Shown in pieces: positions 2,159 to 37,918 of a stretch of DNA of 43,684 nucleotides (positions within the stretch are counted from its first letter, which is position 1; the number at the start of each line of letters is the position of its first letter). This DNA comes from a virus. Lineage: Duplodnaviria > Caudoviricetes. The notes under the pieces were generated by a model that did no database searches, had not been told where the DNA came from, and saw only the letters and a program-made list of their open reading frames with translations. The DNA lies in the IMG/VR virus record IMGVR_UViG_3300042868_009174, positions 1 through 43,684 of that record; one strand, 5' to 3'. Position numbers and translations under genes: made by a program.

Positions 2159-5100
2159 TTATTGTCCAAATGGTTTTGCTTCTGTACTTGTTCTAATTCC
2201 AAGATCTTTTGCAAGCTCAGGATAGAACATTGGGAGGAATGTAACTCCTTGATAGATGATAGGGAAGGATTTCATGACATATTTTGTGACATGTGTTTTA
2301 TCTTCTAGTTCTTCATTATCAACATTAATAGCGTACAGTTCTGTCATGCTATTTTTAAATAGCTTCATGAAATTTGTAAGGTAGTTAAGAGATGGGAATA
2401 TTCCATTGCTTATCAAACCAAATATACTTTCAGGATTGTAGAAATACAGAAGTTCATCTCTTAGCTTATCCATTGCTCTTATCAAGAACTTGTAACTATT
2501 AATTACTCTTTTGTCTTCATCATCGTCAGGAGCAAATGCTTTTAAACCCATTACAAGAGCAGTGAGTGTCAATAAAATAGCCAATTCCATAATCTGATTC
2601 CTTAGATTAGATCTAACCAAATCCATGAACTCAGATTCTGTCATGTTAAGTTCTTTTCCTGTGTCTTCTTGATACTCTTGTCTTTTCTGTTCCCACAATT
2701 TTCTCATGTATTCTACACCTTCTTCATTTGCTTCAAGAGCATTCTTCATGTTTGTCATACTCTTCCAAAGCTTCCAAGAAAGCATTTTGTATACCATTCT
2801 CATTCTTCCCCACTCATAAGCATCACTTCCTGCATTGTATTTCAGATTACCCAATCTCACATCTACAGGTCTTGGTATCCAGTTTTTGAATACCATGAAT
2901 GATTTTCCAAAAATGTTAAGATTTATGAGTCTTAAATCATCTTCAGAAAGATTACCAAGAGCATCTTTTGTAATTGCTTGCACCTTTCTTCTAAGCTTAA
3001 TTACACTGTCTGACTTTCTATCTACTCCCGGTATATTGAATGTACCATCATCGTTAAGAGTTGCAAGTTTCATTACACCTTTTTCATCTATGAGCTTTTT
3101 TACATCCTCTTCAAACTTTTGTTTTTTGTTAGCTCTGTCAGCAGTTGTTCCTGCATACATGTTTTCATACTCAGGTTGACTTCTCAAATACTCTCTAGCA
3201 TTTACCACTTCTCCATTCTCTATAATTGAGTTATTCAGGAATGCAAAAAAGTTAGCACTTTGTACAGCCCAATCACCATTTCTCATAAGCATCATAGAAA
3301 ACTCTTGAATACTTTGTTGACTTAACTTGCTAAGAGACAATGTTTTAGCAAGTTCTCTATTATAGTTTTCTGTAAGAGGTAGGAAGTATTCAAGAGCTGC
3401 TAGATATTTCTCAGGAACTCTGTTGGTCATTTTGTCAACAGTGACCCACATCACTTCTTTTTCAAATTCTGTTTTTGTATAATATTTTCCAGCATTAATT
3501 GCAGATTGGAATGAACCACCTAAATAGTTAGAGAGAGCAGAGAAAGGGTTAAATCCTAACACAGTGAATTGAAACTGATTGTTCAACTGATCCAATACTC
3601 TGTTAACACTGATTTGTCTACCTTCAAGATTCTCAGGAAATATTTCCATTCCAAGCTTCTCATTTATAAGCTTTCCAAACCCTCCTACCTTTGTTAATAA
3701 TTGATCAAATCCTTCATCATTAATATACTTCTGCTGATAAATAATAGCTTTCATCATGCTTTGGTATATCTTAGAATTCTCATCATTTTTAGGATTGAAT
3801 TTCAATACACCATTCTCATATACTGTTTTTCCATAATAAGAAGTTGCAATAGATTTCTTTTTCTTTTCTACACTAAAAAGAGCTCTTGCTTGATATTCTA
3901 TTTGAGAAAGGTATTTAAACTTAATAGCAAGTTCATTATATAGAGACATTGTTGAGAACAAGTCCTCACTCACCTCTCCATCTATTTCTTTTGTAAGATA
4001 TACAGGGATGGAATCTTTCACTTCTCCAGTCTGTGGATCTACATCTCCATATCCAATGTCTCCTTCATCTATTGATATGGCTCTTAAGAAGTCTTCTCCC
4101 AATCTAATTTTTCCTCCCATTGCTATCTTTTCCATCAAACTCTTTCTCACAAAAGGAAGGAACACTCTTGCTTCAGCTTTACTAATATATCCTATTGATT
4201 GGAAATATTCATTTCTTTCTTTTATGTAATTGTAAAAATCAAGAGCTGGCTTATTTATATATTCTCCTTTACTATCTACTGCGTTAAGCTCTTTCCATTC
4301 TTTAGTCTCCCACGTTTCTCTTTTAGGAGCTTTTTTAACAACATCATATATAAGCCATCCTACAGTGGTGGTAGTGTCAATGTTATATAATTCTCTTGCT
4401 TTCTTGATTTCAGCAGCTTTTTTCTTCTCATCTTCTTCTGTAATAACAGGTCTATTTTCAATACTTTCAATCTCTTCTTTAAGTCGCTCTTTCATTAATT
4501 CTTTAAGGGTCTCTCTATCTGTATTCTTGATTATCCAAGAATAGTCTTTTCTTTCCTGAGCTTTTTTTAGTTCTGAATAGAACTCTCTATCTATCTCGTC
4601 AATTAATTGATTTTTGTCTTTTTTCTTTATAAGCTCATAACGGTTTTTACTTGACAATCCTTTTTTTCTTGCCCATTCATCATACGCTACCCTAAGCTTC
4701 TGTATTTTTCTTGTCTCATCTACGGCTTCCATTGCAGCATATCCAAGCACCCTGTTTGCTTTCTTGAAAAGAGTTTGTACAGCTCTAAGTTGCATTACAG
4801 AAGTGGTGGATAACCATCTTGTCAATCCTTTCACCACCTTTTCAGGAGACATTATATCTTCTGTTTCTTCTCTAGCTGCTACATATCTTTCTACATAATC
4901 TGTTTCTATCTCATCAAGTTTCTTAACAAGTTTTCTAGTTTCATGTGTAGTGGCATTCAATTCTTTGAGCATCTCTTTATCTTCATCAGACAATTCTTTT
5001 CCTTCAAATAAAAAGTCCAAATCTACATCTAGTGAAGAATATGTTCTACTAGCGGAGAGCTGAAGAATTTCCAGTTCTTCATACATCTGACTAATAGCAT

Positions 5101-7570
5101 CGTCTGTTTTATCAGCCACATTTCCGGTTTTCCAATTCTCATTATAATTCTTTACAAGGTTTTGTATAAGTTTGTTGAGAAGTTGGGATTGTTTAATCAA
5201 AGGTTTAACAGACTTCTTCATTTGAAGCTGTCTTATTGCAGAGAACAATGCATTTAATTGACTTGCTTTTTCTCTTTTAGCTTTTTCAGAAGTGGCTTTT
5301 TGTTCTGAAAGCTTTGAGTACAATCCATTGAGCTTAACAAGTAATTCATCAATCTCTTTGCTTCCTGTGGTTTCTTCTTCAAGTCCTACAGGAATTAAAT
5401 AATCTTTGTCAATCAATTCCACTTTAACACCACCTATCTCAATACTTTCTAATGTAGGAAGAATCTTTTCTTTGTAATTAGGTTCTGTATAATATGCTTT
5501 AATAGGAATCATTCTTGTTTGTTCAAAGTTGTTGGCTTTTACACCATATGCTTTTTCAAGAATGAGTTTATATTGTTGCATCTGTTGTCTCCAAGCATTT
5601 ATCTTGTACCAAGGAACATCTTCATACTTGTCTACATTCAGGTCCATGAACTTCCAGTCAAGGATGTTCACCTTTCCATCTTTAGTGATAGCAAGGAAAT
5701 CTATTGTACCTGCAATACCACCTCCTTGTCTTTTCTCATCATATACAATTGCTTCAGACAAGAACCTTGTTCCTTCAGGAAAAGAATTAAGCCTTTCTCT
5801 AAGATTGTCTCTCAGTGTTTCATACATTGTTCTGTCTTCAGGATTTAGAACAGATGTATAGTCATCGTCACTTAGTGGTTCATCTCTCAAGAATCCATTC
5901 TCATCTACAAACAGTTTAAAGGCATTCTCCATATCCTTGTGACCAGATGTTCCCTTTTCTGCTTTCAAATCATTCAAAGCTTTTTGAAAGTCATCATCAG
6001 TGAGCTGCTTTTCTTTAAATCTTCTTGAGTACCAATCACTTACAATATCTGTAACTCTTTTAGAAATCTTTACACCGTTAATGTAATATCCTCTTTTACT
6101 TTCATCAGGGTTATCTTCATCCTTTGATATTTTGTTTCTTATTTCAATAAGCTTATTGTACAGGATGTCTCTTGGAGAATCACTAAGATAGATTTCATCT
6201 TGTGTAGCACGAATGTCTTCTGCACTACCTACGTCTTCTCCAGATATAACTTTTAAAGCAGCTTCATCAAATGCAGATGATGTAATACGTTTTCTAAACC
6301 AATCAAGAATTGCTTCCCACCAACTTAATGTTGTAGCAAGGAGCTCAGGTTTTTCTGTAGTACCTTCTTGTTTCTGAATAATGGTTTCAGCCAACACTTT
6401 TCCTATTGCTTCTTTCTTCAGCTTTAGTACATCAGGCTTTCCATCTTTTTGATAATAAGGATTGTTAGAGTATTCTTTGAATACAGTTTTTAGAATATCG
6501 TATTTGTTTATCTCTTTTAATAATCTATTAAACAATTGAGGATTTGTCTGCTGTATGATTTCAACAAAGAAGTGCATTGCTTCTTCAGGGAGGGTGGTGT
6601 CAGATTTACCTTGAGCCACCTGAATCATCTTCTGTGTAATCAAAGCAACAGCATTGGCATCAAGTTTTTTACCATTTACAACAATGCCTGTCACCTCATT
6701 ATAATCAACACCAATCCTTTTCAAAAACTCCTTGACAAGCTTTATTGTCTTTGGAGAAGCTTTTGAACTCTCTGTTGCTCCTTCTAATTGGAACATTCTT
6801 GCTCCATCTTGTGCATTTGGAGCTATCTTATTCAATGCATCTATAGACGCTCTTGCTTCAATAGCAATCTTGTCATCTGTCAATAAGTCTTTTCCATTTA
6901 TCCAATATACATCCCTGTCATTATTATCAATATGACTTTGTTCATGTAATACTAAAAAAGCATTTACTAAATCACGAGTGGTTAGTGTAGACTTTATTCT
7001 TTCAATAGGCCAGCCCATTTTAGAAAGAGCTCCTAAAACTTTTTGTTTTTGGATAGATGTAGATCCACCTTCTTTACCTTCAAAATAGTCAAAAAATTCT
7101 TGTAAGTTAGTGACAGGATTTATTACAATCTTTTTACCATCTGTACTAGCATATCTTTTTGAACCATCTTTATTCCTTAAGTCTTTATTTGTAGTGTGCT
7201 CAGGAAGATTGAGTTTGGTTTGATCACCTCTATCTTTGGGATCCGTCTTTTCACTTTCTGGAAGTTTTTGATATTCATGTTCAATGTAAGAAGGTTTTAC
7301 ATTCAACATAACTATGACAGGATCATATGGAGAATACTGAATAACATCTCCAACGATTGCATTCTTGAAAGATGATACTACATCTATCAGTTTTTGTTCA
7401 GCAATTTTTTTTGCTTGAGAAAGTGACGTTGCTTTAGATTTAGAATCATCTGCAAGACTGTTTATTCTTATAGTATCGTCTGTAAGACGAGTGAATGTGT
7501 ATCTGCCATCAAACATTTCATCAAATGCTTGATCAAGTATTGCTTTTTTTACATCTAGTCTACAAGCCAT
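2159..7570 (-). CDS. Large virion cargo/ejection protein with a PD-(D/E)XK (RecB-type) nuclease and zincin-like domains
   Basis: GTSGH...GTIDFLAITKDGKVNILDWKF...QQMQQY nuclease motifs. HEQSH...EARA intact metallopeptidase motif. Degenerate EEAMH motif. Hydrophobic C-terminal helices. Coupled to the vRNAP gene. Confidence 0.8.
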   Translation of the reverse strand: MACRLDVKKAILDQAFDEMFDGRYTFTRLTDDTIRINSLADDSKSKATSLSQAKKIAEQKLIDVVSSFKNAIVGDVIQYSPYDPVIVMLNVKPSYIEHEYQKLPESEKTDPKDRGDQTKLNLPEHTTNKDLRNKDGSKRYASTDGKKIVINPVTNLQEFFDYFEGKEGGSTSIQKQKVLGALSKMGWPIERIKSTLTTRDLVNAFLVLHEQSHIDNNDRDVYWINGKDLLTDDKIAIEARASIDALNKIAPNAQDGARMFQLEGATESSKASPKTIKLVKEFLKRIGVDYNEVTGIVVNGKKLDANAVALITQKMIQVAQGKSDTTLPEEAMHFFVEIIQQTNPQLFNRLLKEINKYDILKTVFKEYSNNPYYQKDGKPDVLKLKKEAIGKVLAETIIQKQEGTTEKPELLATTLSWWEAILDWFRKRITSSAFDEAALKVISGEDVGSAEDIRATQDEIYLSDSPRDILYNKLIEIRNKISKDEDNPDESKRGYYINGVKISKRVTDIVSDWYSRRFKEKQLTDDDFQKALNDLKAEKGTSGHKDMENAFKLFVDENGFLRDEPLSDDDYTSVLNPEDRTMYETLRDNLRERLNSFPEGTRFLSEAIVYDEKRQGGGIAGTIDFLAITKDGKVNILDWKFMDLNVDKYEDVPWYKINAWRQQMQQYKLILEKAYGVKANNFEQTRMIPIKAYYTEPNYKEKILPTLESIEIGGVKVELIDKDYLIPVGLEEETTGSKEIDELLVKLNGLYSKLSEQKATSEKAKREKASQLNALFSAIRQLQMKKSVKPLIKQSQLLNKLIQNLVKNYNENWKTGNVADKTDDAISQMYEELEILQLSASRTYSSLDVDLDFLFEGKELSDEDKEMLKELNATTHETRKLVKKLDEIETDYVERYVAAREETEDIMSPEKVVKGLTRWLSTTSVMQLRAVQTLFKKANRVLGYAAMEAVDETRKIQKLRVAYDEWARKKGLSSKNRYELIKKKDKNQLIDEIDREFYSELKKAQERKDYSWIIKNTDRETLKELMKERLKEEIESIENRPVITEEDEKKKAAEIKKARELYNIDTTTTVGWLIYDVVKKAPKRETWETKEWKELNAVDSKGEYINKPALDFYNYIKERNEYFQSIGYISKAEARVFLPFVRKSLMEKIAMGGKIRLGEDFLRAISIDEGDIGYGDVDPQTGEVKDSIPVYLTKEIDGEVSEDLFSTMSLYNELAIKFKYLSQIEYQARALFSVEKKKKSIATSYYGKTVYENGVLKFNPKNDENSKIYQSMMKAIIYQQKYINDEGFDQLLTKVGGFGKLINEKLGMEIFPENLEGRQISVNRVLDQLNNQFQFTVLGFNPFSALSNYLGGSFQSAINAGKYYTKTEFEKEVMWVTVDKMTNRVPEKYLAALEYFLPLTENYNRELAKTLSLSKLSQQSIQEFSMMLMRNGDWAVQSANFFAFLNNSIIENGEVVNAREYLRSQPEYENMYAGTTADRANKKQKFEEDVKKLIDEKGVMKLATLNDDGTFNIPGVDRKSDSVIKLRRKVQAITKDALGNLSEDDLRLINLNIFGKSFMVFKNWIPRPVDVRLGNLKYNAGSDAYEWGRMRMVYKMLSWKLWKSMTNMKNALEANEEGVEYMRKLWEQKRQEYQEDTGKELNMTESEFMDLVRSNLRNQIMELAILLTLTALVMGLKAFAPDDDEDKRVINSYKFLIRAMDKLRDELLYFYNPESIFGLISNGIFPSLNYLTNFMKLFKNSMTELYAINVDNEELEDKTHVTKYVMKSFPIIYQGVTFLPMFYPELAKDLGIRTSTEAKPFGQ

Positions 7571-10500
7571 TATTTACATTTTTTGTCTTGAATGTTAAGT
7601 TGTTTGTCAGGAAATTCCTGTTGCACATCTGCAGATGACTCATCAAAAGAACTAACGTTCAATTTACTATTCATCTCTATGCTACTAATTGGAACATTAT
7701 TACCGGAGTTAAGAACGATTACATCTTTAGAACTTCTGGTAATTGCTGTGTAATACCATCTAGCACCATTCCATGAAGGAGCTACATAGTTTTGATTTAC
7801 AAACACTTTGCTCCATTGAGAACCTTGAGATTTGTGTGCTGTTACAGAATATCCGTAAGTGGCAATCACTAAAGAAGGAGAAACTTTAAATCCTTTTTTT
7901 GTTTGAATAATCAATCCTTTACTTTCAAGAAAATTCATAAACTCAGGATTAGTCTTTGCATATTGCAACAACTGTCCATGATAGAAACTAGGTTTATCCA
8001 GCAAAGGAATGTGTAACATTGTTACAGGTTTGTTATCCTTAGTTTTCACATCTATGAAAAAGGCATCGTATTTGCTAATTTTTCCATCTCTACTTTCAAG
8101 AGAGATTTCTTTTTTCACAGGAGTGCCCACTTCACTGATTTCAAATATTTCTGAATTAGGATATGCTGTTGAGTTAGCTACAGAAATCATTACATCTCCT
8201 TCATTAAGAAGAGTTTTCTGTGCTCCAAACTTCTCTTGTCTGGCAATATTATTCATTGCCACTCTTTCATTGTTTGTAGCTACAATCATTACAACATCTT
8301 CTCCATTTTTAATTGCAGATTTGAAATCATTTACAAACTCGTTTCTAGAACTAGTTACTTTAAAGTCCTGAATAGATGTTTCAGGAATGTAGGGTTTTCC
8401 ATCCACTCTGGTTATTGTGGCAACTTTAAGAACATTGCTGTCCAAAGATTGCCTTTTCACTTCTGTTAATTCTGTTTGATTATTTTTTACTTCTTCAATC
8501 TTTCCTTTAAATAATCCACTATCTTCTCCTACAGGTTCAAGTTGGAAACTGTCTCCCATGAAGATTAGTATATTGTTTCTATTAGTAGCATTCAGAAGAT
8601 CAGTCATCAACTCTTTAGAAATCATAGAAGACTCATCAATAATGATTACAGAATTTTTTATGTCTGCTCCTATAACCCATTCTCCTGTTATAGGATCAGG
8701 TTCTCCATATATTGACTTATGTATTGTTGAGGCTTCTGAGGCTACACCAGCAGCTTTTAGTTTGTCATTTAACACCTTTGCAGCTTTGTTTGTAGGAGCA
8801 AGCACTTTTGCAGGTCTTCCTTGTGTTGCAGCATACCTAGCAATGTTTTCAGCAATAGTAGTTTTACCTGTTCCTGCATATCCGGCTAAAAGATAATACC
8901 CTTGTTTGTTTGCATTAATTAAGTTCTGTACATCAGATAAAGCTTTTCTTTGACCAGTGGTGTAGTCTATTTGAACATTTCTAGTTTCAAATATTGTAGG
9001 CAGGGTTGATTCTTCTTCAGTGAAAGGTAGTTCAGAAACTTCTTGAGAAAGAGCCGTGTATTTAGAAGCTACATTTTTAGGATTCATTGCTTGCCAATCC
9101 TTTCCTCCTTGTTTGAATTCACCACTGACAACATTTCCATTTTCTAATGTAAATCTGTATTGAGTTCCAAATTGTTCAAATGTTTTTGTTTCAATGTTTT
9201 TAGGAGTTTCTTCAGGAGTGAATGTCACTTGACTAGTTCCTGTAACAGGTTCTTCGTTAGGCTTAATTATTTCTTTGGATGTGAAATGTCTTATCAAATC
9301 ATCAGTGTTTGCTTCTTTTTCAACCTTTGATGTACCATTATTCAACACAGACTTTTTGAAGTCTTTGTAATATTCTGATACATATCCAGCATCACCATAA
9401 AGATTTATACGTTTGTAAATATACGTCTTATTTCCATCTTTGTCATATTTCAAGACAGGAGAACCATCAGGGTATTTCACCTTTTCAAATCCAAGAATTT
9501 CTTTAGGAACAGTCTCTCCTTTTGCAAGCATTGTTCTATATTGCCTATTAGAATATGTCCTTCCTGTAAGAAGGTCTTTCACTGACATCTCATCTTCTGT
9601 TTCATATTCAGGATTAATAATAAACCTATCCATCTTAAGATAATCAGAAGATACATGTCTCATGTGATACTTCTCATTCAGCGTAAGTACACTTCTAGAG
9701 AACATTGTAATTCCTAATGGCTTAATTGTTGGAAAGTTATTATCTGCATAGTTGTAGTTGAGATTCACTTTCTTGAATATGTCATCATTTTTCCATTGGT
9801 TCCTGTAGAACATTCCACGCTTGAATACATCCATTTCAGGAGTGTATCTGAGATTTCTCATTGAATCTCCTATTTGTTTTTCATAGTCTTCAGCAGGGAC
9901 AATGTTCTTAATGGACATTGCTGACTGTTGGCTACCCTGAAGAATCGAAATCTTTACAAGAGCTTTATAAAGATTGGTGGTTAGTTCTTGTGTTTCAGGA
10001 TCACCATTGTCTCTCAATTCACGCATCTTACCTATGAAATAGTTTTCATCATACCCAGAAGCTTTTGCGTTTCCTTTGAGCTTGATTGTCCAAGGACCTC
10101 CTGTTCTAGCTTGTCTAGGTTCAAGAAGCTGAATCAAATCATCGTTAGGGAACTTTTCTTTTGCTTTCATGAGCAGTCCTACAGCAGATGTGCTGCTATC
10201 AGATGTCAATTCTGCTATTTCAGAATTCAATCCAGTTTTAGTTTGAATAATGAAATCAAGCAAAGAGGTTGCCACCTTTGTTCCTATTGCTTCATACTTG
10301 TCATCACTGAGATAACTATCTTCTGCATAAGGTCTAAGGATGTCATCTGTAATGTTTTGTCTTATATCCTCCTTGTCTAGTTGCAAATACTCTCCTACTG
10401 CTTGTACAGCCAAGTCAAGGAAATATGCTTGTTCTCCAAGATGTGTGTTTTTTAACACTTCATCTACAGATGAGAATATATTTGACTCACTTGCAACATC

Positions 10501-13500
10501 TGTTCTTGTTTGCTTTTTAAACAGAGAGTTACCACTTCTAAATCTAGTGGTGTCATAGTTTGATGCTTGTGTAAGCTTGAAGCTGTACTCAGCCATCTTT
10601 GCATACTTAAGAAACTCTGTGAGCATCTTTTGCTGCATTGCATTGTAAGCATCATCAGTTTTGTTTTCTCTGTATAATTCAATATTGTCTTTAAGAGACT
10701 TGAGAGAAACATCTAATTGAGTTTCATTAATGAGTTCTTCTGTAGTAGGGAACTCTGATCTAATGTAAGCAATCTGATCATTGTTAAATAATGATCTAAA
10801 GTTAGACTCATCCAGTTGTTCCAAATAAGCTCTAATGATAGGTTGGTTCATGAAGAATGGCACTGTTTCACCTGCACCTATTCTTTCAAGGAACATGAAT
10901 GTACCTACAGCAAGTTCACTTTTAATAATCTTCATGATATAAGGATCTTTTGCTACATCCACAAATGTGGTGGCATATCCTGAGAGCCTTGAAGAGATAT
11001 AAAAGCCTTTACCATCAGCTGTAAGTTTTCCTGACATGGAAGTATATGTTCTATTACCTACTGTCACAGTGTTGTGAGGAAGGGCAATAGATCCATTTCC
11101 TAGAATCTCTTTATCTTTTTTGGAAAGATTTGAAAATCTATTAGTGTCAAGATAGAGCTTTGACTTTTGAGCATTTGAATGTCCAGTGAGGTTTACAGCA
11201 GCTATACCCACCCAACGCTTGGCAGTGATGAATGAATGCCTAAGCTTGGACATATAGCTTGCATTGAGAAGTCTGTTTTTAACATTCTCTCCCACATCAC
11301 CTGTAAGATAGTCAAGCTCTTCAGCAACCTTCTTAAATCCTGCATCATCTACAGGAGCAATATTCCTTTCATAGTTTACAGGAGATGTAATAAGCTTCTC
11401 CAGAGAATCATAGTATTCATTTTCCAATGCACGTTTGTACATTTTCTTAATGTACTTTTCTTTTACATCATCATTCAACATCTTTTGTGTAAGCTTTTCT
11501 TTCTTACCACCAAGTTTATTGATTTGATCAAGGATGTATTCTCTGGGAGAAAGTCTTTCTTCTCCTGCTTGTTCCATCATTTCATTAAGAAGTACAGCAT
11601 GATCTGTGTAGAACTCAAAGTCTTCATCAGACAATAGTTCAAGATTCTCTAATGTAATCTCATCAAACTGTTCAACTTTTTCAAATACATCTAATATCTT
11701 ATCTCTAAATTCATCAAACTTTGTTATTTTGTCAATCTGTTTTTGAATAGTTTCTTCGTATACGTTCTTATAATACTGTTTGGTTTCTTCTTCACTTTCA
11801 TTTATAAGAGAAACAATTCTAATGTTATCATTTGCATCCAAATAGTATGACTTGAGATAGATGAACATCTTATCAATGTCAAAGTCAGATCCAGCCATTG
11901 TGGTGATTTCTGAAGGAACTATCACTGTATGCCCCATGTATTGAGGAAGGAATCCTTTCACCCTCAATGCTGCCATTGAAGACAATGCCTGTGTAGGAAT
12001 ACGGAAACCAAATGCATTTAACAGCTTTCTTCCATCTTCTGTGTTGTTTAAATGACGAAGAAGTTCATCATCTGAATATCCTTTATATTTCTTTGGAAGC
12101 TTCTCTCTGAACCAATGAGGAAGCATCACTTCCATATATGGATCATCAGGAGTGGGCATCTTCAGAGTATCGTCTGTCAGATAGACATTCTTTTGTTCAT
12201 CACTAGACAGCTCTGCATATTTCTCTTTAGTGATTTTAGTGTATGTGAACTTGCCATCTTCACCTTTCTTCTTTATTACAAGACTTCTTGATGAGCCAAG
12301 TTTCTCAAACATTGTTACAGGACTCTGTACATATGCAGCTCCATGCATTTTAGGAGAGTTGACAGACTTATCCACCATTGAGAAGATGATATCTCTTATC
12401 TGTATGTATGCATTGGAAGATTCAAACGGTACTCTGAATTGACCATTCTCATCAAGCTCAAGAACATATTTAACATTATCAGATGCTTCTCTTCTAAGGA
12501 GTTCATGTTTCAGAGACTCAGACAAAGCAACAGGGTCTACAATATTAAACTTACCATCTCCCAAATGCTCCAGTCCAAGCTTATTGAAAAGTTCCTCCAC
12601 TCCATTTTTGTGGTAAGCATTAAGTGTTCTTACATATCTTTTATACTCTTCAGCAATTTTTTCATTTACAGCTTCACCATTTTCAAACAAATCAATTGTA
12701 CTAATCTTTGTTGTTTGAGAACCTCTTGTCAAATCTTCATGAAAATCTTCATATGTGGTTTCCACTTGCACACCAAGAATTTTCCAAGGCACTTGTATGA
12801 TATTATCAAAAGGTGCTGTGTTAAGCTCACCATTTTTCTTATATACATCATAGAGTGATTCAGCTCCCACCTTTCTACCACTACCATATACAGCATATCC
12901 TATTTTCTCCTTGTACATCTTAATGTACATGTCTTCAAGATTAGTTCCTTCCACCATGCTGTAATACAAAGGCATCTGAGAGAACTTATCAAGAACATTA
13001 TCAAAATAGGTTCTATTTGCTTTATTACCTGAAACAATTGTCTTCAGCACTTCTATCATGTGCTTAGGAGCAGGCTTGGAAATCATTTTCTCATCCTGAG
13101 CTTTCAGTTTTTCATTTGTGTAAGTGTACTGCCCTTTCTTTGCAAGCTTGTTTCTTGTATAAGCCATTTGCCATTGATGCCAAGGTTCTGCCTTTTCATC
13201 AATCCATTGACCATTCTTTATTTTCAACTCTCTGTAGACATTATCCATCATGAAGGAGAAACCATCAGTTTCTGTAGTGATGGTGTCAAATTTAGAATAG
13301 ATTATTCCTGCTACATCTACATCACTAAGAGTGACAGTGTTAATGTTTGGTGAGAATAAATGATAACCGGGGTCAGTTGGTTCAAGAGGAATGTCTTCTG
13401 CATTATTCCTATCCTGATTAAGAGCTGTATTCAGTTGAGGGAAATCAACAGTGGTTCTTCTGGGAGACAGGAATGATTTAGTACGTTTAGTCTCATCAAG

Positions 13501-16500
13501 TTGATTATTCTTTATTTTGAATTGATAAGGGTCTCCAAAAATCACCTTATGCATTTCAATATTGTTAATGACATAATTAATGTTTCTAAACATCATAATG
13601 TCATTAAACTCTTTCTCACTTAGGTCTCTCTTATTGACATCAGCTGCTTTTGCAAAATCACCATCCAAGTTTGGAAAATTGAAAGTGTCATTCTCATTCT
13701 GATACACTCTCTTAAACTTAATCAAATCATTCACCATGTCTTGGTTAGAAGATTCAATGAATGATTTTACAGATGAGTTTACATCACTGATTCTATCATC
13801 TATGTATTTGTTAATGTCATCTTTATTAGCATCTTCTTTTATAAGACTATGTATTTTTTCAACCATGTCTTTAGGAAGAATCTCTTTGAAGAACCTAAGC
13901 TCTTTTGCTCTTGGAGCTGTGTTATCCAAATAACTCCTATCAGACATTGCAAGCTCCACCTCATCATTAAGATAGTTACGGAAGATGGTGTATATTTTAT
14001 CCCAAGCTCTTCCACCCACAACATCATTGTATGAGATGTTGTTACCAAGATTGATCATCCATTCTGTAGAGCTATCTGCAGGAACGAGAATATAATAGTC
14101 ACCATTGAGATTCTGGTTAAATTGCAATACAGCAGCATCACCACGACTAAGTCTTGATATCTTTACATCCTTTCCACCATCAATGTCTTTGTTTCCTTCA
14201 ATATATTTAATTTTAAACTTCTTTATCTGATTACCGTCTTCATCATAGAAGAGTCCTCCTTTCTTGAGAACAATAGAAGATTTTGAGAAAACATCATTCA
14301 ATTCAGGTCTCTTTACATAAACCTCATCCAATGTTGGAGACTCATTCATCTCATTCTCAAACACAGAAGTGTGATTGTTTTCTGCAAACTCATTCACTCT
14401 TTCTCCTTCAATGTTAAACCTTGTGGTTTCATGAGGAGGATTTTCCACTCTTATGTAAAGCTCTGCAAGCTTTTTGATAGCACTATCTATCTTCAATGCA
14501 TCTCCGGTAACAGATGCAATATCGCTATCTTTGGAAATATATTTTTGTATGCTGGATACAGCATCGTCAAACTTTGCTTGCTCAGATCTTTCACCCACTT
14601 CTTTCTTTACACTGAGTCTAAGATATGTGCTCAGAGGAAAGTTTATACCAAGTTTCTTAAGAAACTCTACTTTCTCTTCAGGTGTGGATGTAGGAATCTT
14701 GCTAATATCACCCACTTGATATCTCTTAGTGTCAGGATTGTAGGTTATAAGTGAGTCTCTCTCCTTTGCCAACAGTTTCATGTTAGACAACCAATCACTC
14801 TTAACTTCTTCTGCAGCTGTGAACAGATTTGCAGGAGATGTATACACATTGTCTCCTGAAGAATATTGTACAAGAGCAATAGGTTTCTGTTTTGTAAATG
14901 TCTGATAGAATTGAATAAACAGTCTCCAATCATGATTTTCAAAACTACTAAAGTCCACATCCATCACTCCATCAACAATTCTGATTGCTTTGATAAGCTT
15001 AAGTCTTCCAAGAAGTCTGTAATAGTCTGTATTCAAGGAAGCAAGATTGACAAGCTTTTCAACAACCCTCTTAACACTTGATGTGTTATGGAGTTTATCC
15101 ATCACTGTTGCAAATGCTTTGCTAAAGTTGAGAAGTTGGAAACCATTTAATTCAGACCAATCTGATTGTGGTGTAGAAAGATTGTTAGCATCTAAGTTTC
15201 CACTTGGTTTTGTCTTTGTCAATGTTCCCAAGAGCAGCTTGATAGGATAGCCAGAATGCTTTTTCCAATCTGTTGCAAATGGTTCAGGAGCATAGCTTCT
15301 ATTGTCAGACTCATTATTGTTTACATCTACAACTAATGAATCATCAAACTCAATCTTGAATTGACGAAGGAACTCTTTTGTTCTAGAGAACAATTCACCA
15401 AATTGTTTGGTGCTCAGGAAGTCAGGGTCTGTATCATCTATCTTTTCTGAATCTTGATATTTCTGCAATACATGATTGTACAAATCTTTGTCAGTGAGTT
15501 TTTGTATATCATACAAAGATTTATTTGATCCAAACAGATATTGGAAAATGATAGCAGTCATGTCTTCTACATACAAACGTGTGTCTGTTTGTGTAAGACC
15601 TTCCACTACACTATATTCAGGAATATCAGATTTAGCACTTTCAGGAACTACATAGCTCTTGAATCTACCTTTCTCAATATCATCAAACAACCTGTCCACT
15701 TTTGTAGACTTGAAAACAAGATTCTTTACAAACTGAATAATGTTCTTAAAGAATCTTACAATCTTTTCACTAAGAGAACGTGCAGGAAGTTTACCAAGTC
15801 TATAGTCAGCAAAGTCATCAGCTATTCTTTCTTTAATCTGTTTGTCTGTAGCCTCATCCCATTTAATCTTCTTTCCTGTTTCTCTATCAGTGAATGATCC
15901 AGACTTAGCTTTGAGTTGTTCAAGAATAGCAGCTCTTTCTTCAGAAGTGAGAAATGCAGCCCATATACCTTCAAATATCTCATGGTATTCTGTGCCTCTG
16001 ATTGCTCCTTTGTAGAACTTGGCTATGCCATCTACAAACATTCCATATGCTCTTCTTCCATCATTGAGCATGAATATTTTTTCTGATATTTCATAAGGAA
16101 TACCGGGAGCCACTTCATTATGCCACTTCTTGAATATCTCAATATCAGCTTGGGATATCTTTTCTTTCTTTGAAGGTGTTGTTTCTACAAGTCTATATTC
16201 TCCACTATCATCATGTTTCTTTCCTCCTTTCTTTTTCTTAGGTGTGGGAGGAGGTGTTTCTACAACAGGAGGTGTAGGAGCTTCAGCAGATTTCTTGGTA
16301 GATTCTTTTTCTAATTCATATTTTTTCTCATACTTGGCTTTAATTTGTTCGTCAACTTCTTTGATTTTTCTTAAATGATTAGCTTCTAAATGTTTTTCAT
16401 AGAGTAATTTTTTCCCAACTTCAAATGCTTCTGTTCTTTCTTTTTGAGAATATGTAGAAGGCATTGTTAATGCAAAAATGACATTGCTTAATACAATACG

Positions 16501-19500
16501 GGTATCGGTTATACTAAACCCAGCCCATTCTTTAACTATTTTTTCAACTTCTTCTTTATCTTTTGCATTTCTAAGTTGTTCAGGATATTTTTCTAATTTT
16601 TTCTTCTGTTCTTGCAATTCTGCTATTTCTGTGTCAATTTTAGAAATAGGAGCAGAAACAGAAGGTGGTGTAGCTTCAGCAGGTTTAGCTCCTTCTAGAG
16701 CAGATAGTTCTGCATCATATTTAGCATTGATTTTATCTAATAGTTCATTCTTACTATTTGCTTCAATTATTTCAGTATCGTTATTACTATTATAATAAAA
16801 TGTATTCCATTCTCCTTGAGATTCATCAAATTCACTAATTGATAATTCTCTTCTTCTTTCTATATCAGCTTTAGCATCTGTAGAAACAGCAGGTTTTGAA
16901 TCATATAAAATAGTTCCATCAGGGTTTTCTACTTTTACAATAGTAGCTAAATCTACAGTAACTCCTTTATTACCAACACCTAATTCATTTCCAACTAATG
17001 ATATTCTTACAGATCCTTCTCTTGTACCATCAACTAATGTTACAAAAAACTGTCCTCCTTCTCCTTGTCCTGCTTTTTTTATAGCAGCTTTAACTTCTTT
17101 ACGTTTGTCTTCTATAGAAGTAAGAGTTGAGGGAGTAACTGAGGGAGTTGGTGAGGGAGTTTCTGCTTTAGGAGCACTCTCTTCTATTTTTTGTTTCAGT
17201 AACCCAAGAATCTTGAAAGATGCATATGTAACTATTTTCTCTTCTGCAGAAGCACTTGGATTATAGTTTTCTTTTTGAGCAATCTTTAAAGTTTCATCAA
17301 CTATTTTCATTGCATCCGGATTGGATATCAATTGTGAAAGATAGTTTGAACTTTGATTATCAAGATCCACTTTTACTTTCAATATTTCTTTATCAGAAGG
17401 AGAAACTGTAAATTGCACAGGAGCTTTAAATGCATCTGTAGAAGTGTAAACAGTTTTACCATCAAGGATAAATTCAGTGTCTCCAATCTTTATAGTAACT
17501 GGCTTTGCAGTAACTGGAGGAGCTTCTGGTTTAGGAGCTTCTTCAGATTTTTTCTCACTCAGTGTTTTATCAATGTTTCCTCGTATAGATTCTTTTATAA
17601 AGAATGCAACAGAAAACTCAATGTCATCTTCATTGAATTTCTTACCAAGTCTTTTTCTAATTTCACCTAATATCGGACTTTCTTCTCCAGTGGTTTTATC
17701 AACCTCTGAAATAGCAAATATTGATTTCTGCGTTGCATCATCAGGTACAATCTCTATATCAGATGTGTTATCTGTTGCAAGCTTTGCATTAAATGTAATA
17801 GGACCAATTGATTTAAAATCTGTATATGTGTTTTTAACATATTCAGTTTTCCCTACATTGTATTTACCAGCTTTTACAACATCTCCGGGTGTAGGTGTAG
17901 AAGAGGGAGGAGGAGTTTCAGACTTAGGAGCAGGTGTACTTTTAACAGGAAGAGCAGGGAATTCTGTCTCACTGAGAATAGCATATTTCTGTTTGAAGTT
18001 ATATGGAACAAGGTCTGTAGGCTTTGCTACAAACGTTGTTACAGGAGTGTCATTTGCACTTCTTGCATTACCATCAGGATATTTTGCAGAAAGCAAATAG
18101 GTTTGATAGTTAGTCCACTCTCTTTCTTTGAGTTCTCCATTCTCTACATAAAACTCTACAAACTTTTCATGAAACTTGTTAATACCAGCTTCTTCTGTAG
18201 ATGTAAGAGATTTATTGTTTATTGTATGATAGGCATCTAACAGTTGGTCTATTATTTGCTTCTTTGAATCTTCAAGCTTTGTAATATCGTATTTCTTATC
18301 ACCAAGTATGAGGTTCATTTTTGAATCAATGAACATCTGATTAGCTCCACCTTTAGCACCTGCTGCTTTCTTCCAATAAAGAAGATTGCTCAAATATCTT
18401 GTATAGATGGGATTGAACTTAACCTTCTTACCACTGTTTGATTGTTTCTGTATATCTGCAGCAAGTAGTCTGAGCACTTCATATATAGACTCTGCTTGAT
18501 TCCTGTTAAACTTATGGTTTACAGCAGGAACAAAAACATCTTCATATTGAATCATTGATCTGCCCTCACGAATCTTATATGATTGTCCATTGTGAGAGAG
18601 TGTACCTTTTGTTGATACAACAATAAGACCTTCTTGACTTTTTATTTTACTTTCTTCAATCAGTGTACCACCTATGTGGTTTCTTTCCTTTATGTCATTT
18701 ATAATTGGAATACCATTTGACACTCTAAAAGAATATATTTCAGGCTTGTCAGAAGCAATTTCAAAAAGCTGTTTGCGTTTCAATGCCCACCTTTGAGACA
18801 TTTCTTCTGCTTGAGCTTTCTCATCAATTCTAAACCTTTCAGCATTCTTTCCTCCCTCATCCCAATACAAAGAAGTGTTAGGCATTGTAGAGAACACCAC
18901 TTGGTTTAAATCCACTTGGTCTCCCACCTTACCTATTCTCTTTCCGTCTTTATCAACAAAGTAATAATTAGATCCTTGTTGTTCTACATATACAGCAGCA
19001 ATGAGTGCATTGTCAGTGTTGTCTATGATTACATTTCCAGAAGCATCTCTTTTTACATCTTCTCCCATAGAGAGCTTGTGAAGTCCTGTCAGTCCCAAAG
19101 CATCTTCTTGCTTTGAAGTGACAACCATCACTCTCATGTTAGCTTTGTTTGCAAACTTTCTAAAGTTGTTATGAAATGCAATTGATCTCTGTGCATGAGG
19201 TTTTTTGGAATCAGCATCTCTATCTTCAGAAGCAGATGTAGTTGACCAAAACAACCATGACCAAAACTTTCTTTTATCTTCAGGATTGCCTTTATATTTA
19301 TCGTCTGTAAAAGGTACACTATCAATTGTACCAGAGTCACTAAGTTCTAATTCTTTCTGTTGTTGTTCTACATCATCTTTTACTTTCTCAAGCTTCTCTT
19401 GTTCAGTTTTTAGTCTTTGATAACCTTCAAACTTACTAGCAGGAACATCATATATGTCACCATTTGAATCTTGAATTTTAACAGTGCCATTTTTGTTAAA

Positions 19501-22041: not shown

Positions 22042-22042
22042 G

Positions 22043-24889
22043 TCATTTTTCAATTAAAATGCTTTTAACAAACATGGGACTCACTTGTGTTAAGGCAGAT
22101 GTTGCTGCTCCTAAACTTGGACTTCCGGGAAGATTTCTAACTTTTTCAACTTGTCCATCAGTAACATAAATATATGGAAAATATAAACCATTTTGTAGCA
22201 CTATATTTCCTTTTGCAGAAAAGCCAGAGTTTTTAAGTTGAGTAAAATCATTATCATCAAACCAAGAATCTCCTTGTATATATGTAGAAGTTTCTGAAGG
22301 ATTTCCATTAGACGATTTTCCTCCATTATACTTTATAGTATTTCTAAGTATTGACAGTTCTTTTGATTCATACAATGTATTTATGTCTATTCCCATTGTC
22401 TTTGCTTCATCAGGTTGAACAATCATTCCTCCAATTCTTTTATCACCATCATAAGCTACAACTTCTACTTTTACTTGTCCATCTGTACCTATTGTTGGTT
22501 GAACATTAAGAGCCAAGTTAGAAGGATCACTTTTTGCATTAACTGCTTTTGCAAATTCTTTAAAATCTCCTGATTCATTTATTCTTCCACCACTAGCTGT
22601 ACTATATCCACCAACCATTCCTTTCACACCATACAAAAGTTCTTTATCAGTATCACTATCTCCTGTAAATAAAGGAGCTTTAAGATTTGGTTGAATATTA
22701 TAATTTCTTCTAATTACCTCAGCTCTTCCTTTTATAGCTCCTGCAAAATTTTCATTATCAATTACATTAAATACTTTTTCGACTTGTTGAAAAGGATTCA
22801 TTGTATCATTACCATATCTGAATTGCCTATATACATCTTTTACACCTGCAAGACCTCTGACTACATCATAAACAAAAGTAATGGGACCTCCTTTATATGC
22901 TCTTTTATCAATATTTTCATCAAGTATACCTGTTAACAATTCTTCTTTTCCTCTTAGTTTTAATCTTGCAGCAGCAGAATTAGCAGCTCTTCTTACTCCT
23001 TCATCTGTAGCTCCTGCCATTGTACCTAATACGCTAAGATTGCCTTTTAGATATACAGCAAGATCGTATACATCATCTTTTGATAGTTCGTACTCTTTTC
23101 CTCTAAATGTTATTTTTTGATCTTTTATATCTACAAGAGCTGTTTGTCTAGAAACATCTTTTCCAAAAAGAGCTTCTTGTTGGTCATCGATTTGTTTTCT
23201 AATAACTCTTTGTCCTTCAAAGTTTCTTAAAGATTGTTTAAAATTTTTATACTGGGTTTCTAGTATAGGATTCTTTTGTTTTTGTTCAGGAGTTAGATTG
23301 TTATATGTTGTTATTACTTTATTATTATACTGAGTTAAAAATTCCTCAAGAGGAATTTTTCTTTTATCAGCAAGTTGTTTAAGTATTGTATATTTTGCTT
23401 CTTCAGGACTTTTTCCACTCTTTACTAAATTATCAAATATTTTTTTGTTTCCCGGAATATCTTGAAATCCTGCATTCCAAACTAAGTCTACAGAATTTCT
23501 GTTGTAATCTTCAGCAGCATTTCGATAATCTCTGTCTTCTAAATATATTACGTCGGTGTCAGAAAATTGATTTCCTTGAGTAAAATCAAAAAGGTCTTCG
23601 GGAGTACCAAGTCCATTATTACCTTTTCCTCTTTTACCTCCTCTAGTGGAAGCATTTAGAATAGCTATGTCCCAAGCTTGAGAAAGTGCTTTCTTTTTAT
23701 AATCCATGTCATCTCTAAACTCTTGTCTTTCTCTTGCTTCAGTTTGAGCCCATCTACTTTGTGCATTTGCTTCCTTCTGAACTTCAAACTCAGCTCGCCA
23801 AGCAGGGTTTTCAAGAATTTGTTGTTTACTTACAACTTTTCCAAACATTGTTGAATATCTAGAAAAGACATCATCTTCATAAAGTTTCCCTCTTACTGTA
23901 TCTGGATTTTCATTTGCAAGTTTTGCATATGCATTATAATTCTCATTTATAGTTGTCATTCTTTGTGAAATAGCATCTATTTGATCTTGTATTGCTTTTT
24001 TTCCTTCGGCACTTGTCACTGAGTTTTTTTCTATATTCAGGTCGGCAAGTTTCTCTTCATATGTTTCTAAAAGAGATTCTTTTTGACTATTAACTTTTTC
24101 TGCAAGCATTCTCTCATCATAGTTTCTGTAATTGTATTCTCCAGTAATGCCAAGTTGACGACTCACTCTAGGATCTGAAAATATTTGAGATATTGTCTCT
24201 TGAACCTTTTTTGGAAACCTTCCTTCTTTTTCTAATCTTGTCATTGTTGTAGAATAGACAAGAACTTTTTCTTTCTTTCCATTTTTACCTACAACTTCTC
24301 TAGTAATAGGTTTTCCGTCTGCTCCCATTTGATAAATTTGATCAAAAGAATATCCATCTGGCAACACTTCGTCAAATGTTTCCTTTGCAAATTTAAATAT
24401 GTCAAAGAAAGGGATGTAAGAGTCAGAAAACTTTTTTCCAAGTTCCGTTGAAGACATCCAGTTATTAGCTTGTTTTTGAAACTTGAATATGTTATCAGGA
24501 CTAGACTTTCCTTCTTCTATTTCTTTTTGTATCTTTTCTGTCTGTTTTCTATACCAGTTGGTAGAAGATACAGCATTTTGAACATAGGGATCTTTGGCTA
24601 TTTGTGTAGCCATACCTCCAACAGAATTGACAAGTTGGTAGTTGGAGAAGTCTCCTGCAGCTACACTTTTCAACTTTGATCCAAGTTCATTAACTTTTCC
24701 TTGGAGATATGCTTTGTCAATATCTCTTACAATATCCAATCCGGCTATGCTATCAATATAGCCTTGGATTTTTTGCACACCTTCGTCATACTTCTGCTGT
24801 TTATACATGCCCACTTGGGTCATTGCTTCAACAGGAAGTTGCTGAATGTAAGGATTAAATTGTGATATGCTGTCTGCAAAAGATGCCAT
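22043..24889 (-). CDS. Putative virion cargo/ejection protein (948 aa)
   Basis: Helical/coiled-coil protein directly upstream of the vRNAP, the cargo-gene position in crAss-like phages. No catalytic motif recognised. Confidence 0.65.
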   Translation of the reverse strand: MASFADSISQFNPYIQQLPVEAMTQVGMYKQQKYDEGVQKIQGYIDSIAGLDIVRDIDKAYLQGKVNELGSKLKSVAAGDFSNYQLVNSVGGMATQIAKDPYVQNAVSSTNWYRKQTEKIQKEIEEGKSSPDNIFKFQKQANNWMSSTELGKKFSDSYIPFFDIFKFAKETFDEVLPDGYSFDQIYQMGADGKPITREVVGKNGKKEKVLVYSTTMTRLEKEGRFPKKVQETISQIFSDPRVSRQLGITGEYNYRNYDERMLAEKVNSQKESLLETYEEKLADLNIEKNSVTSAEGKKAIQDQIDAISQRMTTINENYNAYAKLANENPDTVRGKLYEDDVFSRYSTMFGKVVSKQQILENPAWRAEFEVQKEANAQSRWAQTEARERQEFRDDMDYKKKALSQAWDIAILNASTRGGKRGKGNNGLGTPEDLFDFTQGNQFSDTDVIYLEDRDYRNAAEDYNRNSVDLVWNAGFQDIPGNKKIFDNLVKSGKSPEEAKYTILKQLADKRKIPLEEFLTQYNNKVITTYNNLTPEQKQKNPILETQYKNFKQSLRNFEGQRVIRKQIDDQQEALFGKDVSRQTALVDIKDQKITFRGKEYELSKDDVYDLAVYLKGNLSVLGTMAGATDEGVRRAANSAAARLKLRGKEELLTGILDENIDKRAYKGGPITFVYDVVRGLAGVKDVYRQFRYGNDTMNPFQQVEKVFNVIDNENFAGAIKGRAEVIRRNYNIQPNLKAPLFTGDSDTDKELLYGVKGMVGGYSTASGGRINESGDFKEFAKAVNAKSDPSNLALNVQPTIGTDGQVKVEVVAYDGDKRIGGMIVQPDEAKTMGIDINTLYESKELSILRNTIKYNGGKSSNGNPSETSTYIQGDSWFDDNDFTQLKNSGFSAKGNIVLQNGLYFPYIYVTDGQVEKVRNLPGSPSLGAATSALTQVSPMFVKSILIEK

Positions 24890-37189: not shown

Positions 37190-37918
37190 TCAACTTCCAT
37201 TAGGTGCATTTGCAGCCTGACCATCTAGATTATTTTGTGTCATATCTTCCTTCACTCTGAAGTAGGTGTTAAGAAGCTTCTGTGATACAAGCTCCAACAC
37301 CTGCTTCTCCAAATATCCCGGACATGCATATTCTTTATCAAGAGGGTTTTTACACTTCTCTGTAACATCAACATTTTGAGAGCAGCTGCAATTCTCAGGA
37401 TAGAGAATTTCATTGGGCACATCCTGCTCAAAGTATGCAGCAATCCTTATAGCTCTCAGCAGAGGATTAGTTACATACAAATACCCATTCATTATCCAGT
37501 AATAGGTTTCGTTCTTGATTACAGGAAGTTTAAGGAGATTGACATATCTATTCACTGTAATCTCCTTGAGTTTCTTTCCTGTTCCACCCATTGCATTAAT
37601 TGAATAAACTCCCTGAATTAGATATTGGTAATTACCTTCTGCTATTCTAGGGAGTTTGAATTTTGTTCTTGCAATTCTACATTCATCTACATACTCACAG
37701 CATTCAGAAATAGGCACTTCTTCAAGCTCTAAACAAGGAATAGTGGTGAAGATGGTGGACGTAGCCCAAAGCTTTCTCAGATTGGTTTCCCTCTTGACAA
37801 GCAAGAGAGTGCTGTTCTTAATCTCAGAAGCAATAGTTCTGTCTGTGATTAAGCTATCAGTAGAGAGAAGCTTGTGCATGCTTCTCACATCACTTACCAA
37901 TTTTCTGAGCGTAGCCAT
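37190..37918 (-). CDS. Tail ring protein
   Basis: Size (242 aa), synteny, and the YYWIMNGYLYV / AYFE / C-terminal EDxTQN pattern. Confidence 0.6.
   Translation of the reverse strand: MATLRKLVSDVRSMHKLLSTDSLITDRTIASEIKNSTLLLVKRETNLRKLWATSTIFTTIPCLELEEVPISECCEYVDECRIARTKFKLPRIAEGNYQYLIQGVYSINAMGGTGKKLKEITVNRYVNLLKLPVIKNETYYWIMNGYLYVTNPLLRAIRIAAYFEQDVPNEILYPENCSCSQNVDVTEKCKNPLDKEYACPGYLEKQVLELVSQKLLNTYFRVKEDMTQNNLDGQAANAPNGS

Follow-up and report, generated by a model that had tools for sequence, protein, structure and literature searches.

The gene considered here raises the question of how a crAss-type virion RNA polymerase (vRNAP) obtains its template in the cell, and what a helicase carried on the same polypeptide might contribute. 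The source of the template is at issue because such polymerases are nearly inactive on duplex DNA in vitro: according to parts of the Drobysheva preprint, gp66 uses single-stranded DNA efficiently as a template and duplex DNA only poorly, and N4 vRNAP likewise favours single-stranded over duplex DNA in passages of PMC13434306. The window, i.e., the whole stretch of 43,684 bases that was analysed, is a viral record about 38% complete, whose sequence is present in lake and freshwater metagenomes. Most of its long genes lie on the minus strand, crassvirus muzzle and ring genes among them. The initial annotation had proposed that a complete RecD/Dda-type SF1B helicase is fused to the C terminus of the vRNAP encoded in this DNA. 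The relevant features are collected in Table 1.

Table 1. Features of the cargo genes in the window, with the evidence for each
Feature	Position	Strand	Evidence or remark
Giant cargo polyprotein gene	7570..22053	-	4827 codons, no internal stop
gp67/gp47-like N-terminal region, aa 5-760	19774..22041	-	profile hits (see text)
Zincin-like domain, HExxE variant, aa 1964-2138	15640..16164	-	profile hit to crAss001 gp47
Virion RNA polymerase module, ~aa 2140-4262	9268..15636	-	tblastn, profile, fold
Pro/Glu/Thr-rich linker, swap point at aa 4283 (base 9206)	9193..9270	-	relative P0122, run X10 contig
~50-aa module, beside fused helicases only	9040..9192	-	13/13 matches carry helicase
Dda-type SF1B helicase domain, aa 4351-4795, cysteine-free	7669..9003	-	motifs, profiles, model
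32-aa C-terminal tail ending in Cys4826	7573..7668	-	sole cysteine of polyprotein
Next cargo gene, 1803 aa, gp65/gp49 position	2159..7570	-	sole cysteine is residue 3
Upstream pair of ORFs without cysteine, 948 and 1269 aa	22043..28785	-	crassvirus cargo 1/2 by position

The polyprotein consists, in order, of a gp67-like part, a gp66-like part (the vRNAP), a payload slot and a terminal cysteine tag. Residues are numbered from a TTG codon; the ATG at 22041 yields a product of 4823 aa, which is database record P0002. The N-terminal region gave profile hits to phi14:2 gp67 (E 9e-9) and crAss001 gp47 (E 2e-36), and judged by these homologies the polyprotein is a gp67-gp66 fusion. The zincin profile hit falls on the HEAFH region of crAss001 gp47 (E 1e-14); across 170 homologs the motif is HExxE in 130 and HExxH in 40, the window protein having HExxE. 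Around the polymerase, gp67 homology and the muzzle and ring genes are present; the 1803-aa downstream gene resembles gp65 by position and Cys3 only, and the 948- and 1269-aa ORFs, which come after the muzzle and ring genes, are assigned to cargo 1/2 by position. A second variable region (16170-17950, aa ~1370-1960) is composed of small modules between Pro-rich linkers; those at aa 1650-1730 are 73-96% identical to modules of distant relatives, and the others are unique. Elsewhere in the window, a DNA-repair-exonuclease-like gene (37918-39171) lies amid the tail genes, and an amidase endolysin and a holin-like gene (562-2017) come after the cargo block.

The polymerase module matches phi14:2 g066/gp66 both by tblastn (E 9e-14) and by profile (E 5e-57). 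Its predicted model (aa 2748-3808, pLDDT 87.6) has the two-barrel fold of gp66 and QDE-1, with 6VR4 as the best Foldseek match (E 3.2e-28), followed by QDE-1; a phmmer search of the whole protein against the PDB did not recover 6VR4, whereas the profile and fold searches did. The catalytic motif GSDFDID is located at aa 3388 (11892-11872), with Ile at the fourth position of DFDxD, where Ile or Val is given in parts of the Drobysheva preprint as a mark of the crAss-type polymerase. The window protein thus resembles the phi14:2 gp67-gp66-gp65 (gp66 being 6VR4) and crAss001 gp47/gp50/gp49 proteins in its two-barrel fold, DFDID motif and gp67/gp47-like N terminus, as well as in its place after the muzzle and ring genes and in the confinement of cysteines almost entirely to facing termini. 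Unlike in those phages, the gp67 and gp66 parts form one chain. In another set of loci (L151-L170), the polymerase genes are split into short ORFs under code 11, for which introns or recoded stops are the likely reason.

The helicase is read in the same frame as DFDID, its motifs lying about 1000 residues C-terminal of GSDFDID. All of the motifs originally named are present in that frame, namely the Q motif TTGQRKAL at aa 4365 (8961-8938), GYAGTGKTT at 4391, LAPTNKAA at 4418, TIH at 4443, IIDESSM at 4471, GDSFQL at 4500, VKRQ at 4532, TAHKSQGSQW at 4738 and YTAITRS at 4768 (7752-7732), with SF1 motifs Q, I, Ia, Ib, II, III, IV, V and VI all intact. The domain is real, but the interval first proposed for it (7710..8975) misses its beginning at about aa 4351 (base 9003), which coincides with the first residues of standalone homologs. 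It lies downstream of the polymerase as described, but it is not the C terminus itself, since the 32-aa tail with the sole cysteine follows; the Pro/Glu/Thr-rich linker is also present, but contains a conserved module of 50 residues.

Profile searches identified PHROG 325 Dda-like helicase (E 6e-65), Pfam AAA_30 (E 6e-27) and UvrD_C_2. The AlphaFold model suggested as a check, built from a 60-row alignment, has a Dda-like fold (pLDDT 93.3) with two RecA-like domains, a 1B pin and a beta-rich 2B domain; its top fold matches are 3upu, 8jx6, 8s9i and RecD2, T4 Dda (3upu) being the best solved match (E 1.1e-22). The likeness to T4 Dda (3UPU) and RecD2 extends over the fold (TM 0.66-0.69), the motifs, the pin aromatic and the 2B beta domain. 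The pin hairpin (8671-8706), whose loop is modelled less confidently (block pLDDT 75), carries Trp4459, which aligns with the pin Phe of Dda; the position is W, F or Y in 118 of 125 fused domains. The catalytic residues (Walker A K, Walker B DE, motif III Q and motif IV/VI R) are kept in all 125, a set gathered by homology and thereby biased toward intact copies. Assignment as a RecD or RecD2 equivalog was rejected, the scores of 90 and 126 bits covering the core only and standing against cut-offs of 310 for TIGR01447 and 500 for TIGR01448; since these curated NCBIfam cut-offs were failed, Dda-type is the right name. T4 Dda itself is a standalone protein of the cytoplasm that assists replication and recombination, and it moves 5'-to-3' on single-stranded DNA. 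In comparison, the window helicase is 21% identical, cysteine-free and fused into virion cargo; single-strand-dependent ATPase and 5'-3' unwinding activities would be expected of it from its family. The GC content gives the cassette no distinction (0.342 versus 0.356), and the three scorable strain differences in the helicase (one silent, two conservative) are too few for a test of selection.

The vRNAP-SF1B helicase fusion is real. Four runs were compared over 6500-13500, none of them marked as a possible source of the record, although two (X4 and X5) possibly belong to one campaign; coverage gaps in runs of low depth were given no weight. The junction, for which a check of sequence support had been advised, is bridged by contigs of other runs: one X4 contig covers 8852-11361, from Walker A through the polymerase DVAK motif, with 0 differences, and others span 8861-9686 (X5) and 8651-9166 (X6). 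A helicase search limited to giant proteins gave 198 matches among 1299 scored candidates, and nearly all of the best 120 of the 198 contain the polymerase motif. An assembly chimera, a missed stop or a decaying passenger is thus already refuted for the window by independent contigs across the junction, by an architecture common to 198 giant homologs and by invariant motifs, and we give it a negligible probability overall, even though several short database proteins on long contigs (P0228, P0230 and P0231) contain only helicase and tail and the L124 helicase is truncated, so that split or broken forms, or else sequencing errors, do occur.

The cysteine content of the domain bears on whether it leaves the virion. 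Suppression of cysteine is reported in parts of PMC11445570 as a mark of ejected Schitoviridae (N4-like) proteins. The fused helicases contain 3 cysteines in 54,919 residues compared to 382 in 41,997 for standalone homologs, and 122 of 125 fused domains are cysteine-free versus 1 of 99 standalone ones; for every other residue the fused-to-standalone ratio stays at or above 0.56. The individual sequences are kin rather than independent, and clusters at 50% identity (28 fused, 16 standalone) show the same contrast with near-complete separation. Columns prone to Cys in the standalone helicases are occupied by Ser, Ala, Val or Thr in the fused ones. The polyprotein as a whole has 1 Cys in 4827 aa, and the four cargo-position proteins of the window together have 2 in 8847 residues, while the tail proteins hold many. 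The loss of cysteine is indirect evidence that the helicase domain itself is ejected, which lends indirect support to the earlier notion of an injected RNAP-helicase and would represent a whole enzyme being adapted for ejection. Packaging and ejection of the polyprotein are presumed by analogy with phi14:2 and crAss001.

The few cysteines that are retained follow a pattern. The Cys4826 codon (7576-7578) faces the Cys3 codon of the next gene (7562-7564) across the junction. At 46 junctions between a polymerase end and the next start, Cys is found on both sides in 42, on neither in 4 and on one only in none; at 34 junctions between the previous end and the polymerase start, the corresponding numbers are 22, 11 and 1. 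Among control junctions, the count is 2 of 63. An N-terminal Cys occurs in none of the 145 proteins beginning with the gp67-like domain and in 25 of the 52 others, and phi14:2 and crAss001 also obey the rule of facing terminal cysteines. These pairs suggest a head-to-tail disulfide chain of cargo proteins. A precedent for the predicted Cys4826/Cys3 pair is described in parts of PMC12002296, where gp27 and gp26 of cyanopodophage A4 are joined C-terminal to N-terminal by a disulfide (Cys1715-Cys5) seen by cryo-EM; A4 belongs to a different phage group, and those parts mention neither polymerase nor helicase.

The initial annotation had considered the helicase a possible lineage-specific module. 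On the contrary, the fusion turns up repeatedly in crAss-like phages that are distant from one another, involves several clades of helicase and several positions in the chain, and is optional, neither lineage-specific nor required. The helicase is present in 20 of the best 120 of 1891 polymerase-core relatives, the window protein counted. The nearest polymerase relative lacks it, and the next one carries a different helicase type, its polymerase being 68% identical and its helicase only 25%; conversely, identity to P0006 is 74% over helicase and tail and 23% over the polymerase. A more diverse set of 80 viral loci yielded 58 distinct polymerase ORFs with a 3' end, six of them short split ORFs; 10 of the 58 bear the helicase, which is truncated in one of the 10 (L124). 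None of 16 polymerase loci in genome bins has the helicase and, since these are mostly binned phage contigs, they point to no host or culturable source. Scanned against viral contigs as a single sequence, the helicase gave no relatives.

A polymerase tree of 157 rows, enriched for helicase carriers, shows 23 changes in the presence of the helicase, 20 of them forced by well-supported branches, and the rows nearest to the window are a non-carrier and a carrier of the other helicase type. This tree implies at least 20 events of gain, loss or exchange of the fusion. The helicase tree, with 234 rows, has 9 changes of the fused or standalone label, of which 5 are forced and one of these 5 arises from P0232, a fragment of a fused protein that is labelled standalone in the tree and was left out of the cysteine count; because the root of this tree is not fixed, captures and escapes look alike. 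The helicase gene likely derives from the capture of an entire standalone Dda-like gene, which recombination in linkers would then have passed from one polyprotein to another. Two groups of standalone-sized helicases (P0236-P0240 and P0248-P0252) are nested among the fused ones and have only 1-3 cysteines; they may be escapees from polyproteins, and P0236 and P0237 bear a DnaJ-like Pfam label.

The polymerase catalytic motif is contained in 122 of 125 giant helicase proteins, a proportion biased by a search restricted to proteins of 2654-8448 aa. The helicase follows the motif in 95 and precedes it in 27 (in one of these, P0042, it sits inside the polymerase region), the other 3 being motif-free, and this variable position argues against a fixed docking geometry. 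Forty whole records, 36 from the 80 loci plus 4 others, were picked to include carriers and long contigs; 12 of them have a full-length Dda-like match, in all 12 inside the polymerase ORF, these 12 having been chosen with knowledge of the fusion. In the 40 records, neither a separate gene in the gp67 or gp65 position with a helicase nor a standalone full-length copy was found. Of 25 genomes that were near-complete or served as references, 19, phi14:2 and crAss001 included, gave no Dda-like helicase of any kind, and in this respect those two phages differ from the window.

The exchange can be placed precisely in the window. The relative with the closest polymerase, P0122, shares 91% identity over aa 1947-4283, beyond which its sequence becomes an unrelated tail of 195 residues. 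A 7781-base contig of run X10 (depth 20.9) shares 94% identity with 9206-10200 and departs at base 9206, where P0122 diverges as well, and the same run, the only one of four examined for this to show both tails, also contains the helicase tail at a depth of 3-4.5. Helicase-bearing and helicase-less alleles in one sample therefore share the swap point at base 9206. After this point come the 50-residue module, the helicase and the 32-residue tail. Two of the 13 matches to the 50-residue module are the window protein itself, and both unrelated helicase types are represented; the type of tail is common to the helicase-less relatives P0193 and P0167. The slot of the polyprotein tolerates a folded enzyme of 440 residues, and its contents vary: domain coordinates determined in five relatives place AlkB, NADAR, DUF7831 and RNase H in the same slot and an ART domain (ART-PolyVal) C-terminal of the helicase. 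Precomputed Pfam labels, counted by eye and checked by coordinates in those 5 proteins, give AlkB in 13, NADAR in 10 and DUF7831 in 10 of the best 120 of 1891 relatives.

The best explanation of the module, which we hold tentatively and at somewhat less than an even chance, is that of an optional helper that would unwind or clear incoming DNA for the polymerase. The helicase would be packaged and ejected together with the polymerase, and would unwind and clear the entering phage DNA to provide the polymerase with a single-stranded template; on the non-template strand, a 5'-3' helicase would travel in the same direction as transcription. A role in template opening is favoured because gp66 needs single strands and because the 5'-3' polarity fits the direction of transcription. 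The invariant catalytic residues of the fused domains, their loss of cysteine and the location of the helicase always in the polymerase ORF (12/12 records) likewise argue for this reading. Dda-type enzymes require a single-stranded loading site, so the predicted helicase may extend a bubble rather than start one. Against this reading stand the 100 of the best 120 of 1891 relatives, the nearest included, that lack the helicase. Since most relatives do without a Dda-like helicase, template opening has another, general solution, to which this optional module is not the answer, and promoter opening, DNA pulling and protein stripping by such an enzyme, all envisaged in the initial annotation, are not essential steps.

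A bolder form of the same idea, possible although doubtful, is a self-contained injected machine, in which the tethered 5'-3' helicase would open the duplex ahead of the single-strand-dependent polymerase and draw the genome in, the helicase having been recruited several times independently from standalone Dda genes and purged of cysteine each time for a disulfide-linked chain. If this were true, natural pairs with and without the helicase would show how the polymerases related most closely to eukaryotic RNAi polymerases obtain their template.

The lability of the fusion and the company in the slot support a counter-defence payload nearly as well as template opening, although we consider such a payload rather unlikely. 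The polymerase would then be merely the delivery vehicle, and the ejected helicase would strip host proteins, such as restriction enzymes, CRISPR R-loops and nucleoid proteins, from the DNA, or feed single strands to repair domains. Rapid gain, loss and swapping (20 forced changes of 23 on the 157 rows) and two tails in one sample are consistent with such a role, and AlkB, NADAR, ART and RNase H in the slot point to counter-defence cargo, DUF7831 being housed there as well. Titles cited in PMC11551737 indicate that Dda displaces DNA-bound proteins. The polyvalent proteins of Iyer et al. 2017 (PMC5512222, consulted in part) follow the same logic of delivery: they too are large injected chains with a zincin and variable enzyme modules, among which N4-type polymerase fusions and SNF2 or UvrD helicases are listed, and the window protein shares their several unrelated enzyme domains, a zincin (HExxE) and the context of late virion genes. 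The terms RecD, SF1 and Cellulophaga are absent from the main text of that paper. However, no separate gene in the gp67 or gp65 position carries the helicase in the 40 records, the domain is conserved to a degree well beyond that usual for arms-race effectors, and the helicase is not enriched with AlkB, co-occurring in 3 of 13 AlkB-labelled proteins versus 20 of all 120 (best 120 of 1891 relatives).

Improbable, in our estimate, is a DNA-entry motor anchored in the membrane through the gp67-like N terminus, where the helicase would pull one strand in before transcription. Parts of PMC11445570 and PMC13434306 do propose N4-like vRNAPs as genome-ejection motors, 27 of 125 proteins have the helicase toward the N terminus, and two Gly-rich helices of weak hydrophobicity (aa 113-131 and 190-208) occur in the N-terminal region. 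The hydrophobicity of these helices is marginal (1.1), however, most relatives internalise their DNA without the helicase, and many carriers hold it on a gp66-type chain, with gp67 as a separate chain.

A relocated Dda acting late as a replication or recombination helper, priming replication from R-loops or clearing polymerases from forks and perhaps released by the zincin, has an equally slim or slightly slimmer chance. Standalone Dda-like genes are found in some gut crassviruses (cr11_1, cr110_1), the carriers G004 and cr118_1 have no second Dda-like copy in their genomes, and a title cited in PMC11551737 states that T4 Dda aids forks past RNA polymerase. A late cytoplasmic role would nevertheless leave the loss of cysteine unexplained, release by the zincin is putative, the motif here being HExxE, and the helicase is not a relocated replication gene, because the non-carriers among the records searched do not possess a standalone copy either.

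As a crAss-type virion polymerase polyprotein, the window protein is of a known kind; its helicase-bearing form appears to be new. Fusion of the three crAss cargo proteins is described in the literature. Passages of the Drobysheva preprint and of Yutin 2021 (PMC7886860) do not mention a fused helicase; nor do passages of PMC9503650, PMC11054128 and PMC11551737 or, by a term search covering part of them, the supplementary files of Yutin 2021. The word helicase is absent from Bayfield 2023 and from the Crassvirales review PMC10136315. A full-text literature search found no description, in running text, of a crAss-type polymerase-helicase fusion. The reservation that it might be already common and described is borne out in its first half, the fusion being common in uncultured relatives and present in one RefSeq crassvirus. 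In that phage, cr118_1 (NC_055872.1, Suoliviridae), YP_010110531 (4946 aa) has GSDFDID at 3207 and a Dda-like domain at 4437-4912, and shares the near-terminal Cys and a next gene with Cys3; its helicase is distant from that of the window (33-40% over partial stretches). The protein is labelled only 'exonuclease V' or 'DNA helicase', and the filing of such genes as 'exonuclease V' or ATP-binding proteins is a misannotation. To this the window adds the exact position of the swap, with both alleles present in a single sample, together with the 50-residue module that accompanies the helicase and the difference in cysteine content between fused and standalone helicases. The tethered helicase and the 91%-identical relative that naturally lacks it offer a direct side-by-side comparison.

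A few giant helicase proteins have more divergent partners. A class of 'helicase without polymerase', to which 31 giant proteins had been assigned, was dropped for all but 3. In the P0092/P0107 family, the alignment shows a GDxDGD motif following an RSP motif, and the polymerase call is made on these motifs; a polymerase-core search of five records gave a match in 1, a profile-profile comparison between the family and the polymerase core of the window protein did not reach significance, and no named match came from the Atlas. Three phages of about 50-57 kb (L084:3178-14942, L023:4205-15781 and L010:6695-19582) encode a cargo protein of 2700-3000 aa with a gp67-like start, a Dda-like helicase, a zincin, RSP...GDxDGD and the same terminal cysteine pairing; the RSP...GDxDGD region is likely a very divergent two-barrel virion polymerase. 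In P0090 (4071 aa), which starts with Cys3, the helicase is accompanied by tRNA-nucleotidyltransferase, HD and AAA_33 domains and the polymerase motif was not found; it may be a cargo protein of the last position that delivers an RNA-repair payload.
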